Position numbers and translations under genes: made by a program. From a virus (lineage: Duplodnaviria; Heunggongvirae; Uroviricota; Caudoviricetes), in IMG/VR virus record IMGVR_UViG_2579778529_000002, positions 1-5,702 of that record: a DNA stretch of 5,702 nucleotides; one strand, 5' to 3'. Under the pieces are notes generated by a model. That model worked only from the letters and a program-made list of their open reading frames with translations. It had not been told where the DNA came from and made no database searches. The first letter of the stretch is position 1, and the number at the start of each line of letters is the position of its first letter. This document shows positions 1,390-5,702 of this stretch, one piece after another.

Positions 1390-3576
1390 ATGAGCACAAA
1401 ATTCAAAACCGTTATCACCACTGCCGGTGCAGCAAAGCTGGCAGCGGCAACCGCGCCGGGAGGGCGGAAGGTCAACATTACCACGATGGCTGTCGGGGAT
1501 GGCGGTGGTAAATTGCCTGTCCCGGATGCCGGACAGACCGGGCTTATCCATGAAGTCTGGCGACATGCGCTGAACAAAATCAGCCAGGACAAACGAAACA
1601 GTAATTATATTATCGCAGAGCTGGTTATTCCGCCGGAGGTGGGTGGTTTCTGGATGCGTGAGCTTGGCCTGTACGATGATGCGGGAACGTTAATTGCCGT
1701 GGCGAACATGGCCGAAAGTTATAAGCCAGCTCTTGCCGAAGGCTCAGGGCGTTCGCAGACCTGTCGCATGGTCATCATCGTCAGCAGTGTGGCATCGGTG
1801 GAGCTGACCATTGACACCACAACGGTGATGGCGACGCAGGATTACGTTGATGACAAAATTGCAGAGCACGAACAGTCACGACGTCACCCGGACGCCTCGC
1901 TGACCGCAAAAGGTTTTACTCAGTTAAGCAGTGCGACCAACAGCACGTCTGAAACGCTCGCCGCAACACCAAAAGCGGTAAAGGCCGCGTATGACCTTGC
2001 TAACGGGAAATACACTGCACAGGACGCCACCACAGCGAGAAAAGGTCTTGTCCAGCTCAGTAGCGTCACCAACAGCGATTCTGAAATGCTTGCGGCAACG
2101 CCAAAGGCGGTAAAGGCCGCGTATGACCTTGCTAACGGGAAATACACTGCACAGGATGCCACCACGGCGCGAAAAGGGCTTGTCCAGCTCAGTAGCGCCA
2201 CCAACAGTGATTCTGAAACGCTGGCCGCAACACCAAAAGCGGTGAAGTCTGCCTATGACAATGCTGAAAAACGTCTTCAGAAAGATCAGAACGGTGCGGA
2301 TATTCCGGGAAAGGATACCTTCACGAAAAATATCGGTGCCTGTCGTGCTTATAGCGGCGCTTTGAGCACTGAAGCCGGAAACTGGACAACCGCTCAGTTT
2401 ATTGAATGGCTGGATTCCCGCGGTGCATTTAATCATCCGTACTGGATGTGCAAAGGCTCCTGGTCATATGCAAATAACAAAATCATTACGGATACCGGAT
2501 GTGGTGATATCCACCTGGCAGGTTGTGTCGTCGAGGTCATGGGAACTAAATCTGCAATCACTATCCGAGTGACCACGCCGACAACATCAAGTGGTGGCGG
2601 TACAACCAGCGCGCAATTCACTTACATTAATCATGGGGACGGCTACTCCCCCGGCTGGCGTCGTGACTGGAATCGTCAGGGCGACGCAATGACCGGAACG
2701 ATTAATCAGGATGGCGGAAGCCAGAATGCCTATATGTCTACGGCCTTATGTTCAGGCACCAGAGGCGGCAAAAAATATCTCAGAAAGTTTCGTGGTGGAG
2801 AAGGAGACACTATCTGGCATGAAACAGTGCAGGGCGGGGTAATTCGCTGGGCGACAGGAAACTATGACGCTCAGGAAGAATTATCACTCAGCTCCGCTTA
2901 TGGTCTCCGTTCTAGAGGTGAAATTACATCACTCAGTGCTAATGGTCTGCGCATTGCTTATGGCAATTATGGATTCTTTATCAGGAATGATGGTGGCAGC
3001 ACATATTTAATGCTGACGGCCTCTGGTGATAAATTTGGGACATGGAACGGTTTAAGGCCGCTGACTATCAATAACGCTAATGGCGGAGTGTCAATGGGGC
3101 ATGGCCTGAGTGTTACTGGTGATATTGCCTCAAGTACCAAAGTACGTGCCGGTAGCGGGAAAAAGTTCACGGTCAGCAGCAGCAATACATCCACGAAGGA
3201 AGCCGCATTCAATTTGTGGGGAAACTCAAGTCGTCCTGTGGTGGCTGAATTAGGTGATGATGCAGGCTGGCATTTTTACAGTCAGAGAAATACAGATAAC
3301 AGCATCACTTTTGCTGTTAACGGGCAGGTATCACCATCTAACTATAGTAATTTTGATTCACGCTATGTCCGGGATATCCGGCTTGGTGGTGCTGCCACAT
3401 ACAAACCTGCGAACAATGGCATGACATGGACACATCAGGCACCGTCCGGGTGTGTATATTCCGGCATTATTGTTCAGGATACCGGCTCAAACTCTGCCGA
3501 TAACATTGGTGGCGTATATTACAGACCGGTGCAGAAATACATTAACGGGACTTGGTATAACGTGGCGCAGGTATAA
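1390..3576 (+). CDS. H: Tail fibre protein (P2 gpH-like); conserved N-terminal baseplate-attachment region, internal repeats, variable C-terminal receptor-binding region
   Basis: 728-aa ORF with a GAGGA Shine-Dalgarno at 1382-1386, following I. The N-terminus (MSTKFKTVITTAGAAKLAAATAPGG...) resembles the P2/186-family tail-fibre N-terminus. It contains ATPKAVKxAYD-type fibre repeats and a Gly/Ser/Thr/Asn-rich C-terminal half typical of fibre tips. The product is longer than the ~669 aa I recall for P2 H. Confidence 0.9.
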   Translation: MSTKFKTVITTAGAAKLAAATAPGGRKVNITTMAVGDGGGKLPVPDAGQTGLIHEVWRHALNKISQDKRNSNYIIAELVIPPEVGGFWMRELGLYDDAGTLIAVANMAESYKPALAEGSGRSQTCRMVIIVSSVASVELTIDTTTVMATQDYVDDKIAEHEQSRRHPDASLTAKGFTQLSSATNSTSETLAATPKAVKAAYDLANGKYTAQDATTARKGLVQLSSVTNSDSEMLAATPKAVKAAYDLANGKYTAQDATTARKGLVQLSSATNSDSETLAATPKAVKSAYDNAEKRLQKDQNGADIPGKDTFTKNIGACRAYSGALSTEAGNWTTAQFIEWLDSRGAFNHPYWMCKGSWSYANNKIITDTGCGDIHLAGCVVEVMGTKSAITIRVTTPTTSSGGGTTSAQFTYINHGDGYSPGWRRDWNRQGDAMTGTINQDGGSQNAYMSTALCSGTRGGKKYLRKFRGGEGDTIWHETVQGGVIRWATGNYDAQEELSLSSAYGLRSRGEITSLSANGLRIAYGNYGFFIRNDGGSTYLMLTASGDKFGTWNGLRPLTINNANGGVSMGHGLSVTGDIASSTKVRAGSGKKFTVSSSNTSTKEAAFNLWGNSSRPVVAELGDDAGWHFYSQRNTDNSITFAVNGQVSPSNYSNFDSRYVRDIRLGGAATYKPANNGMTWTHQAPSGCVYSGIIVQDTGSNSADNIGGVYYRPVQKYINGTWYNVAQV
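1912..2262 (+). repeat. Three in-frame tandem repeats of 132 bp (44 aa) inside H; units at 1912-2043 and 2044-2175 are near-identical, the third (2176 to about 2262) is partial and diverging
   Basis: Direct reading: GFTQLSSATNSTSETLAATPKAVKAAYDLANGKYTAQDATTARK, then GLVQLSSVTNSDSEMLAATPKAVKAAYDLANGKYTAQDATTARK, then GLVQLSSATNSDSETLAATPKAVKSAYD... The nucleotide sequence is also near-identical between units 1 and 2. Confidence 0.9.
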
Positions 3577-3579
3577 TTT

Positions 3580-4107
3580 ATGCAGCATTTGATAAATATA
3601 ACGGCAGGTAATCCAAAAACGGTTGGACAATATCAATTGACAAAGGACTTTGATGTTGTCTGGTTTTTTTCAGAAGATGGTAAGAACTGGTACGAAGAAC
3701 AAAAGTATTTTGCTGATGACACGATAAAAATAGCGTACGACAAAGATAATATTATCCGCTATGTGGAAAAGGATGTGACAGCTATCAGACCGGATGGATT
3801 AAGTGTTGTTGAAGTGCCGGATATTACTGCTAACCGACGGGCGGATATTTCAGGGGGCTGGATGTTTAAGGACGGCAAAGTGATTAAACGCATTTATACG
3901 GCAGAGGAATTACAGCAGCAGGCAGAAATTCGGAAAGCCAGACTTCTTGCAGATGCTGAATCCGTGATTTTGCCGCTGGAGCGCGCTGTCAGGCTGAATA
4001 TGGCAACAGAGGAGGAGCGCACACGACTGGAAGCATGGGAACGCTACAGCGTTCTGGTCAGTCGTGTGGATCCTGCAAATCCTGAATGGCCGGAAATGCC
4101 GCAATAG
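3580..4107 (+). CDS. G: Tail fibre assembly chaperone (P2 gpG-like)
   Basis: 175-aa ORF starting 3 nt after the H stop (TAA 3574-3576, ATG 3580), so likely translationally coupled. Size and position immediately downstream of the fibre gene match P2 gpG and the tail-fibre-assembly family. Stop TAG at 4105-4107. Confidence 0.85.
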
Positions 4108-4239
4108 ATGTATTAGCTCTGATGTGGGGTTACGCATCTATAGCACAGTGTAGAACCCAATCTGGCGGTCTGCCCTGTGCCAAATGCGGAAATTATGCCC
4201 CAATTCAGTGTTAATAAATGCAAATAATCTACGGTAAAG

Positions 4240-4364
4240 AAAAAGGGATGCTTGTAACTACTTCACATAAACATTATTGTGGTAAAACATACAGTCAAGT
4301 TATCATTTGTAACCTATTGGCATGTATGCTGTATCTATGTTAACTCAAGCGGAAAGTAATTATC
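4240..4364 (+). promoter_or_regulatory. Putative own promoter and RBS region for the cargo ORF
   Basis: AT-rich 257-bp untranslated gap upstream of the ORF. It contains a TGnTAAAAC extended -10-like element (TG at 4280-4281, hexamer 4283-4288), TTGTAA -35-like hexamers at 4252-4257 and 4307-4312, and a weak SD GGAAAG at 4351-4356, 8 nt before the ATG at 4365. The -35 to -10 spacing is not ideal for any pairing I tried, so the exact promoter is not resolved. Confidence 0.3.
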
Positions 4365-5069
4365 ATGGAAAAAATTAAAGCACCTTGCCCATACTGTAAA
4401 GGTGAAAAAAATTGTCTCACAATAGGTCATAAAAAAAGAGAGTGGAGTAAAAATGATGGGGATAACTATTTTTGGGCTGAGAGTGAATATAATTTATTAG
4501 AGTGTATGGGGTGTGATGGAATATTTACATATATAAAGTCCCGTCACAGTGAAGATTACGACATAGAAAGGGATGGCTCGGGGCATGATTTTATGATATA
4601 TAACGAGCATATATCAATATATCCTGCTCAAGAACAGGATGAAATTAGACCTGATTGGTTTGGTGAGGTGCTAAGCAAAGATTATCAGCTATATGTAATA
4701 ATGAACGAAATGTATATCGCATTTCAAAATAAATCATTCATTTTGGCGGCGATTGGGCTTAGAACTATTTTTGACAGAACTGTTGAGGTTCTGGATATTC
4801 ACCCCGGGCATACATTAAGCCAGAAAGTTGATATTCTCAAAGATGAAGGTTTTATCGGGGAAAAAGAAAAAGAGCAACTTAAAATTGTAACTGAAGCTGG
4901 CAACTCAGCTGCACATAGGGCATGGGCACCGAGCGAAGATGAATTTAAATCGCTTTTGGCTGTTATAGAAAGCTTTGTAATGCGAACAATACTAAAAGAT
5001 AATAACATTTTTAAAATCGTAGAAAAACTACCAGAAAAACACTCAAGGCCACCAAAAAAACAAGAATAA
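4365..5069 (+). CDS. Hypothetical protein, 234 aa: N-terminal CxxC...CxxC zinc-ribbon-like module plus a C-terminal domain of unknown function; candidate anti-phage defence / lysogenic-conversion protein (possibly a Z/fun-like gene)
   Basis: Only long ORF in the AT-rich segment, with uninterrupted + strand coding and stop TAA at 5067-5069. Cys8-x2-Cys11 and Cys47-x2-Cys50 are arranged like a zinc ribbon. The C-terminal part has a GNSAAH motif (about residues 179-184) followed by a region of helix-favouring composition. The codon usage is clearly foreign to the flanking phage genes. I do not recognise the family with certainty. Confidence 0.7.
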   Translation: MEKIKAPCPYCKGEKNCLTIGHKKREWSKNDGDNYFWAESEYNLLECMGCDGIFTYIKSRHSEDYDIERDGSGHDFMIYNEHISIYPAQEQDEIRPDWFGEVLSKDYQLYVIMNEMYIAFQNKSFILAAIGLRTIFDRTVEVLDIHPGHTLSQKVDILKDEGFIGEKEKEQLKIVTEAGNSAAHRAWAPSEDEFKSLLAVIESFVMRTILKDNNIFKIVEKLPEKHSRPPKKQE

Positions 5070-5315
5070 TGTACCTAAATATAAACAGAGCTAAGAGATT
5101 ATGTCTTGGCTCTGGTTAATCTCCAGTAGTGCATGATTTTTGCAATGACCTGACTGAACATTTAAACGAGGAAAATATCCCATATTTGCTTTTCACTGTG
5201 AGTTCAGCCTGTGGGTGTAACACTGGTTAAAACGCTCTGCGAGTGATTCATTGTCTAGCGTTCTGGCTATATTAATTTTCAGTTGGAAACTGAGTAAGTA
5301 CAGATAAAGACAGGC

Positions 5316-5339
5316 AGGCGGATTACCCGCCTTTTCTTT
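5316..5339 (+). terminator. Putative Rho-independent terminator
   Basis: AGGCGG (5316-5321) pairs perfectly with CCGCCT (5327-5332) around a 5-nt loop ATTAC, followed directly by the T-tract TTTTCTTT (5332-5339). It lies downstream of the cargo ORF and upstream of FI. Confidence 0.5.
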
Positions 5340-5435
5340 GTCTGTTGTTTCATCCACTGACCAGCCAGGTCAAATAGCGTCTCATGCACTACCCAACAGA
5401 AAATAGTTGCACCCATTAACCACGGAGTTAAACGG
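5339..5435 (+). promoter_or_regulatory. Probable late-promoter region and RBS of the FI operon (P2 PF-equivalent)
   Basis: By synteny the FI operon promoter should lie here. There is an imperfect TGT-N12-cCA element (5339-5356) resembling the TGT-N12-ACA dyad of Ogr-dependent P2 late promoters, and a GGAG Shine-Dalgarno at 5424-5427, 8 nt before the FI ATG. No exact consensus match was found. Confidence 0.3.
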
Positions 5436-5702
5436 ATGAGCGACTATCATCATGGCGTGCAGGTGCTGGAGATTAACGACGGCACCCGCGTCATTTCCAC
5501 CGTATCCACGGCCATTGTCGGCATGGTTTGCACGGCCAGCGATGCGGATGCGGAAACCTTCCCCCTCAATAAACCTGTGCTGATCACCAATGTGCAGAGC
5601 GCAATTGCAAAGGCCGGTAAAAAAGGCACGCTGGCGGCGTCGTTGCAGGCCATCGCTGACCAGTCAAAACCGGTCACCGTAGTCGTGCGTGTGGAAGACG
5701 GC
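5436..5702 (+). CDS. FI: Tail sheath protein (P2 gpFI-like), 5' portion; continues beyond the window
   Basis: ATG at 5436 preceded by GGAG. The frame is open to the window end (89 codons). The translation [89 protein letters not shown] matches my recollection of the P2 tail sheath N-terminus. It is absent from the supplied ORF track only because no stop falls inside the window. Confidence 0.88.

Follow-up and report, generated by a model that had tools for sequence, protein, structure and literature searches.

Introduction

RAZR (PD-T7-4), which comes from E. coli UMB1727 (Vassallo 2022; Zhang et al. Nature 2026; PDB 9Y9C, 9Y6U), is the precedent for a small zinc-finger HEPN protein that senses the geometry of phage ring assemblies. 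In its 219 aa, a Cys4 zinc-finger domain at the N-terminus is combined with a DUF4145/HEPN domain (PMC13017515). Twenty-four copies of RAZR assemble around phage portal or Erf-like rings, after which ssRNA is cleaved; residues R146 and H154 are both essential, and the R146A substitution abolishes defence (PMC13017515). Its specificity is set by the zinc-finger domain, its phenotype is Abi, and the protein is non-toxic when alone (PMC13017515).

DUF4145 is a recognised HEPN family; the zinc ribbon was already listed among its fusion partners and a role in defence or Abi was predicted for it (Anantharaman et al. 2013, PMC3710099). The catalytic motif is missing in about 20% of DUF4145 domains and several HEPN families are non-catalytic (Anantharaman et al., PMC3710099). 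DS-38 (DefensePredictor, WP_001313577.1), which was validated in E. coli, also has a zinc finger and a HEPN domain, and its zinc finger differs from that of PD-T7-4. The PD-T7-3, PD-T4-6 and PD-T4-8 systems are defence cargo of the P2 G|FI hotspot (Vassallo 2022).

We analysed the cargo gene of a P2-like prophage and compared it with these systems. The reading that we favour, and consider fairly probable, is that of a stand-alone prophage-borne antiphage gene which combines a zinc-finger sensor with a HEPN effector and is a distant sister of RAZR.

Results

Location of the cargo gene

The window, i.e. the whole stretch of DNA that was analysed (5,702 nt), is the tail region of a P2-like prophage. 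Its genes were called with Pfam and by reference to an E. coli O121 prophage that is nearly identical and annotated in RefSeq. The features of the window are the following.

Up to 856: baseplate gene J (Pfam, annotation)
849-1379: gene I (Pfam, annotation)
1390-3576: tail fibre gene H (Pfam, annotation)
3580-4107, + strand: gene G, tail-fibre assembly, flanking backbone (Pfam Caudo_TAP, E 1.3e-33; annotation)
4045-4081, + strand: PD-T7-3-F site (4045-4063) and PD-T4-6/8-R site (4061-4081), at the end of gene G (exact match)
4108-5250, no strand: AT-rich cargo island, from gene G to the backbone upstream of FI (GC, phage comparison)
4172-5167, + strand: mobile cassette, made of the cargo gene with 193 nt upstream and 98 nt downstream, shared with a Rac-like prophage
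4365-5069, + strand: cargo gene, 234 aa and stop (ORF list; RefSeq annotation; Pfam; phrog_1305)
5316-5340, both strands: terminator-like GC hairpin and T-run, in the backbone between the island and FI
5410-5427, - strand: PD-T7-3-R site, just upstream of FI (exact match)
5436-5702, + strand: 5' part of gene FI, tail sheath, flanking backbone (annotation, sequence)

The GC content was 0.38 over positions 4108-5435, compared with 0.52 and 0.58 in the flanks. Comparison with P2-like phages showed that they have the G and FI flanks in common with the window and carry other cargo between them, and that matches to phages fell into two pieces, which made up no more than about 50% of the query. The insert between G and FI is thus both variable and compositionally foreign, as in a hotspot. 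The primer sequences given in Table S8 of Vassallo 2022 were also located in the window, where the PD-T7-3-F and PD-T7-3-R sites bracket the whole island. Since these primers match exactly on both flanks, the locus is the P2 site that yielded three validated defence systems.

The only substantial ORF of the island is that at 4365-5069 (+), which is annotated in RefSeq as a 'DUF4145 domain-containing protein' (WP_050497020.1). The original prediction had placed its feature at 4386-4985, which is in frame and runs from Cys8 to residue 207, so that it falls short of the full ORF at both ends. A scan of the + strand upstream of the cargo ORF gave no sigma-70-like promoter, and sites in the region were as numerous as expected from shuffling. 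No Rfam RNA family was found in the window. A search for a P2 late-promoter-like TGT-N12-ACA sequence upstream of FI, in 5061-5440, gave a single match at 5070, which falls just after the stop codon of the cargo ORF.

A stem of 11 bp (CAGAGCTAAGA / TCTTGGCTCTG) with a loop of 7 nt lies at 5086-5114, 17 nt past the stop codon; it has no U-tract, and the stem region is also conserved in the Rac-prophage copy of the cassette. The left arm of this stem and positions 4108-4121, at the left edge of the island, form an inverted repeat of 14 nt (86%), which could be due to chance or could mark a cassette boundary.

Outside the island, the tail fibre gene H contains a T4 gp34-like trimerisation domain (PF21446) and, at 1936-2259, a tandem repeat of a 132-nt unit (2.5 copies, 88% match) that encodes the Phage_fiber_2 repeat. 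The H gene of the prophage of NZ_CP119441.1 is 132 nt longer, which is exactly one more repeat unit, and its upstream part is 96.5% identical; the prophage of the window is therefore related to, and not identical with, that of NZ_CP119441.1, and the two differ in the number of fibre repeats. Between positions 2200 and 4000, a GC content of about 0.56 gives way to values of 0.45-0.49 over the distal half of H and of 0.38 where G begins, which suggests that this low-GC region is a mosaic, horizontally exchanged receptor-binding end. The other variable P2 site of this near-identical prophage, between the replication endonuclease and portal genes of NZ_CP119441.1 (locus 3413-4589), holds an ImmA/IrrE-family metallopeptidase and a hypothetical protein, which may form a second module for cargo or defence.

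Domains of the cargo protein

The cargo protein is made, in order, of a zinc-knuckle beta domain, a HEPN/DUF4145 domain and a short tail, with the following parts.

4365-4658, + strand: N-terminal domain, aa 1-98, seven-stranded beta, Cys4 site
4386-4397, + strand: first zinc knuckle, C8-P-Y-C11 (translation; aligned with RAZR C16/C19)
4503-4514, + strand: second zinc knuckle, C47-M-G-C50 (translation; aligned with RAZR C49/C52)
4659-5000, + strand: HEPN-fold domain, aa 99-212
4707-4967, + strand: Pfam DUF4145 match, aa 115-201
4761-4775, + strand: R133-T-x-F-D137, conserved, on helix 125-142 (column counts, alignment to RAZR)
4890-4892, + strand: T176, counterpart of the catalytic R146 of RAZR (hhalign, column counts)
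4896-4931, + strand: signature A178-G-N-S-A-A-H184-R185-A-W187-A-P189, a variant HEPN motif (translation, column counts, hhalign)
5001-5066, + strand: C-terminal tail, aa 213-234, basic, low-confidence model (pLDDT <50 for residues 214-234)
5031-5033: P223, nearly invariant, in the tail (126/128; corresponds to the invariant P196 of RAZR)

The results of our Pfam search showed that residues 115-201 match PF13643 (DUF4145) with 51.5 bits (cut-off 23.1) and an E of 1.1e-13, over profile positions 2-87 of 88, and so bore out the resemblance to DUF4145 and HEPN domains that had been noticed from the translation. The protein also matched phrog_1305 over its full length (E 3.4e-32), and its N-terminal domain alone matched the N-terminal part of phrog_1305 (E 5.5e-5). 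The mean pLDDT of the AF2 model of the whole protein was 78, with values of 82-93 over the helical part, in which helices were predicted at 99-105, 107-121, 125-142, 151-160, 166-183 and 191-210. The predicted fold of this part is an alpha-helical bundle, as in the HEPN superfamily.

The N-terminal module had been described as zinc-ribbon-like. Its two CxxC knuckles agree with that description and give the protein an N-terminal Cys4 zinc-finger domain of the kind found in RAZR; the module is larger than a minimal zinc ribbon, since it was modelled as a seven-stranded beta domain of about 90 residues (pLDDT 88). Neither a sequence match nor a close structural match to this domain was found in the PDB. 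The linker at its C-terminal end contains the conserved P87 and P96-x-W98.

Searches of the PDB, in a set that includes 9Y6U and 9Y9C (located via Gp77 of SECphi27), gave no relevant sequence match for the cargo protein or for two family profiles. The PADLOC and NCBIfam models gave no usable match to the cargo protein, and those of PD-T7-3, PD-T4-6 and PD-T4-8 in PADLOC gave none. A match to the PADLOC 'CasR' model (E 0.0099), which covers 32 residues only, was dismissed as noise.

Conservation of the family

An exhaustive profile search against representative clusters at 50% identity matched 2589 clusters at E<=1e-3, 1306 at E<=1e-10 and 262 at E<=1e-30, and nearly all of the best 150 clusters were matched over their full length. 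Columns were counted in an alignment of 128 family members which are 26-49% identical to the cargo protein. The four cysteines of CPYC (8-11) and CMGC (47-50), which the translation confirms, are conserved in this alignment: C8 in 122 of the 122 members without a gap, C11 in 121 of 128, C47 in all 128 and C50 in 126, with G49 in 121. In the HEPN domain, R133 is present in all 128 members, T134 in 117, D137 in 124, K154 in 127, A178 in 122 and G179 in 125. H184 is invariant (128/128), and R185 (124), W187 (127), P189 (126), E202 (122) and P223 (126) are nearly so.

An additional Cys17 and His22 had also been pointed out. Both are present in the cargo protein, and they are lineage-specific (45/128 and 13/128, respectively); given this poor conservation they are not general zinc ligands. 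All five cysteines and H184-R185 are kept in 14 close homologues found by a word search. Some relatives, of 409-507 aa, have N-terminal extensions of 100-280 residues (P0078, P0131, P0152) with sub-threshold Pfam matches to small zinc-ribbon families (Lar_restr_allev and others); these extensions may represent further copies of the zinc module, placed before the core architecture.

The EAGNSAAHRAW motif, which had been placed at about 176-186, is present one residue further on, at 177-187, and the numbering of H184 and R185 was right. Its GNxAAH core holds at H184 and at G179 (125/128) and is not fixed at position 180, where 46 members have an asparagine and 63 a serine. The motif of the family is A-G-[SN]-A-A-A-H-R-G-W-x-P. 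The dN/dS ratio between the P2-borne and the Rac-prophage copies of the gene was 0.15 overall, 0.11 for the N-terminal domain and 0.25 for the HEPN domain; the overall value indicates that the gene is under purifying selection. The cargo ORF is a conserved protein-coding gene whose product carries a Cys4 beta N-terminal domain and a HEPN-fold DUF4145 domain.

The variant HEPN motif

The canonical Rx4-6H motif of HEPN domains is absent from the cargo family, as had been cautioned from the translation: no arginine lies 4 to 8 residues before H184, and R185 directly follows the histidine. In the 128-member alignment, positions -4 to -8 from H184 are occupied by N/S, G, A, D/E and T/V/I/A, respectively, and never by R or K; the column of T176 contains a threonine in 45 members, a valine in 41, an isoleucine in 33 and an alanine in 8. 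Relative to the histidine, RAZR has an arginine at -8 and a proline at +1, whereas the cargo family has T/V/I at -8 and an arginine at +1. RNase activity is uncertain because the place of the catalytic arginine is held by T176 and because R and K are absent from positions -4 to -8.

The cargo protein could then be a defence protein with a HEPN domain that is not an RNase, one that binds RNA, a nucleotide or a phage protein, or serves as an oligomerisation scaffold, and blocks the phage by sequestration instead of cleavage. The loss of the canonical arginine throughout the family, the share of DUF4145 domains without the motif, the existence of non-catalytic HEPN families (Anantharaman et al., PMC3710099) and the defence context, which fits equally well, all speak for it. 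However, H184 is 100% invariant and A-G-x-A-A-A-H-R-G-W-x-P, R133 and D137 are nearly so among proteins which are only 26-49% identical, a pattern of conservation typical of an active site, and an arginine adjoins the histidine. We consider a non-RNase HEPN protein unlikely.

The loss of the counterpart of R146 together with the gain of R185 suggests, from the alignments, that a positive charge may have been moved rather than a function lost. R133 and R185 would be the candidates for the positive charge given by R146 in RAZR. The more specific proposal, that the cargo protein is a RAZR-type immune RNase with a relocated catalytic arginine and a bigger zinc-beta sensor domain, is put forward tentatively, as a possibility that we still hold doubtful. 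If it were true, it would imply a different class of phage trigger and possibly another assembly geometry.

Alignment with RAZR

To recover the sequence of RAZR, the two PD-T7-4 primers that have been published were located in IMG/VR and the encoded product was matched to PDB 9y9c. Both primers matched at the same two IMG/VR loci, where they lie about 1.1 kb apart. One of these loci encodes a protein of 219 aa which overlaps an integrase gene and matches chain OA of PDB 9y9c over its full length (E 2.5e-112); as a positive control, it matched the PADLOC PD-T7-4 model with an E of 1.7e-99, and it matched DUF4145 with an E of 3.4e-13. On a second prophage-like contig of IMG/VR (L010:9622-10230, - strand), a different protein of 202 aa takes the place of RAZR beside the same integrase. 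This protein contains R-D-A-I-A-H (Rx4H), has a weak match to HEPN_RiboL-PSP (E 0.021) and matches no PADLOC model. At this integrase-adjacent site, too, HEPN defence genes therefore seem to replace one another.

RAZR matched phrog_1305 over its full length (E 9.5e-29), as did the cargo protein, and the two proteins therefore probably belong to one remote-homology family. The PADLOC PD-T7-4 model (PDLC04109) gave no match to the cargo protein at E<=10 and none among the 128 family members at E<=0.01, and the family profiles did not reach PDB 9y9c at E<=10. The BLASTP comparison of the cargo protein with RAZR gave 19% identity over 107 residues of the HEPN half only (E 0.037). Alignment of the two family alignments with hhalign covered the HEPN domain and the tail only, with a weak score (E 0.0046, probability 7.5%), while that of the N-terminal domains alone, also weak (E 0.0018, probability 15%), put both knuckles and W27 in register.

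The hhalign comparison paired R133 of the cargo protein with R105 of RAZR, D137 with Q109, T176 with R146, G179-N180 with G149-N150, H184 with H154, R185 with P155 and P223 with P196. R105 is invariant in RAZR, as is the proline P155, at whose position the cargo family has the near-invariant arginine R185. Of the catalytic pair of RAZR, H154 thus has its counterpart in H184 and R146 is replaced by T176. The residues of the RAZR oligomer interface (V21, D179, D180 and R184) are not found in the cargo protein; D179, D180 and R184 were aligned to M206, R207 and K211 in a stretch where hhalign confidence is low. In the tail, P223 corresponds to P196 of RAZR within 'S-M-P-E', and this short conserved motif, present in both subfamilies, may be a peptide for docking or oligomerisation. 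Judged from these alignments, the cargo protein is a distant relative of RAZR, which is its closest characterised relative, and appears as a different subfamily, not as a member of the PD-T7-4 family.

Mobility and genomic contexts

The cassette at 4172-5167 has about 82% nucleotide identity with a segment of a Rac-like lambdoid prophage, whose copy of the gene is 86% identical (84% at the protein level). Among 5426 complete E. coli genomes, the whole island was found in 1 and the cassette at about 82% in 12, while 1016 matched some part of the query, most of them in the FI-proximal flank only. The surroundings were inspected for 2 of the 12 copies of the cassette; both lie in a Rac-like lambdoid prophage, next to Hok, an MBL hydrolase and a dGTPase annotated as anti-phage. 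More distant homologues, each a single gene, were found in three settings: an ICE-like element, where an Mrr-like gene adjoins; an island that also holds AbiTii, PLD, Macro and RelB/YafQ; and the terminal part of a lambdoid prophage.

No conserved partner gene was found, the neighbours being different in every context examined. A 41-codon ORF at 4218-4343 was tried as a partner and rejected, since it is broken by indels of 1 nt and 6 nt in the Rac-prophage copy, and the remaining small ORFs are located in the backbone or are not conserved. With the upstream ORF broken and the other small ORFs excluded, the gene is a single-gene system. These comparisons show that the cargo gene moves by itself, as a one-gene cassette, from one defence hotspot to another among unrelated mobile elements.

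An ordinary nucleic-acid-binding regulator of a phage or prophage, carried as a moron unrelated to defence, would agree with the 'DNA binding protein' label of phrog_1305 and with the frequency of nucleic-acid binding among zinc ribbons. However, the presence of the defence RNase RAZR on the same PHROG makes this label uninformative, and no helix-turn-helix or other DNA-binding domain was found in the cargo protein with Pfam. In addition, no homologue was found by tblastn among 50,697 deposited phage genomes, where a core phage regulator would be expected to turn up, and the gene lies in validated defence hotspots. This explanation is improbable.

A HEPN toxin used for addiction or stabilisation, which would maintain its element rather than defend against phages, is very improbable. 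The fold is common to the HEPN toxins of MNT-HEPN toxin-antitoxin systems and mobile elements of several kinds carry the gene, but the variable neighbours include no conserved partner, the small upstream ORF is disrupted in the Rac copy and RAZR is non-toxic alone. It is extremely improbable that the protein is an anti-defence decoy, a crippled RAZR-like protein that co-assembles with host RAZR-type proteins or caps phage rings, as the lack of the arginine required in RAZR, the phage-borne gene and the action of RAZR through hetero-oligomeric ring assemblies might suggest, because the interface residues of RAZR are not conserved and the zinc domain is built differently (which makes co-assembly unlikely), homologues also occur in plasmid and ICE defence islands, and the histidine motif is strongly conserved.

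Discussion

Proposed function

The reading that we retain is that of a stand-alone antiphage gene, whose product would most likely be a phage-triggered abortive-infection effector. It is supported by the identity of the domains, the relation to RAZR and the defence context; against it speak the missing arginine of Rx4-6H, the lack of matches to the PADLOC PD-T7-4 model, the weak direct profile similarity to RAZR, the different residues at the oligomer interface and the absence of a sigma-70-like promoter upstream. By analogy with RAZR, the cargo protein would be harmless in the lysogen until an infecting phage supplies a protein to which the N-terminal zinc domain binds. This binding would rearrange HEPN dimers or oligomers and activate a composite site around the invariant H184, which would cut RNA and abort the infection; catalysis is the least secure of these steps. 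The trigger probably differs from that of RAZR because the sensor domain is larger and differently built, and a protein encoded by a P2-like prophage would have to ignore P2's own portal ring.

A sensor coupled to an RNase-like effector, in an abortive-infection logic, had been proposed with caution in the original prediction. This logic was demonstrated by experiment for the architecturally equivalent RAZR (PMC13017515), and we infer by analogy that it may apply to the cargo protein. The three observations on which that prediction had been made to depend, namely a match to a profile, a helical bundle and conserved cysteines, were all obtained, and our results support both what had been observed and its hedged interpretation.

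Comparison with known systems

Comparison of the cargo protein with RAZR showed that both are single proteins of about 220-230 aa, encoded on mobile elements, with a CxxC...CxxC zinc domain, a Pro-rich linker, a DUF4145/HEPN domain and a proline-bearing tail. However, the N-terminal domain of the cargo protein is about 30 residues larger and has extra strands; in the cargo family the first hairpin contains an insertion and the second knuckle is followed by about 35 additional residues. The family also has T/V/I/A instead of R146 and a nearly invariant arginine instead of P155. The cargo gene is located in the P2 G|FI hotspot, whereas that of RAZR overlaps an integrase gene.

PD-T7-3, PD-T4-6 and PD-T4-8 share with the cargo gene an identical insertion site, and PD-T7-3 is likewise a HEPN protein. 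They are different genes, however, and PD-T7-3 has about 455 aa, with no zinc domain among its listed features. Like the cargo protein, DS-38 has by description a zinc finger and a HEPN domain; identity of the two was rejected on length (1101 nt, or about 366 aa, versus 234 aa). A DUF4145/HEPN domain is also found in BxaP and in Ishtar1, for which defence is experimentally supported against T4 and against plasmid RP4, respectively, but in both it is N-terminal and followed by other C-terminal domains, with no zinc domain, unlike in the cargo protein. Within the DUF4145 branch of the HEPN superfamily, the cargo protein passes the family threshold and has a fusion to a zinc-binding domain, a type already listed, while it belongs to the minority without the arginine of Rx4-6H.

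The architecture is already known, since its prediction dates from 2013 and the structure of one member from 2026. The cargo family is a widespread sister lineage (262 clusters at 50% identity, E<1e-30) in which the overall plan of RAZR is kept, while the mechanistically important parts, the sensor domain and the catalytic arginine, differ. Defence inventories undercount this family, as it is missed by the PADLOC PD-T7-4 and NCBIfam models. It bears on the generality of ring-templated activation, on which other phage features such sensors read and on whether a HEPN site can work with an H-R dyad. Among the systems described so far, the cargo protein stands out as a separate variant, widespread and unannotated, in which the sensor domain is different and the active-site motif non-canonical.
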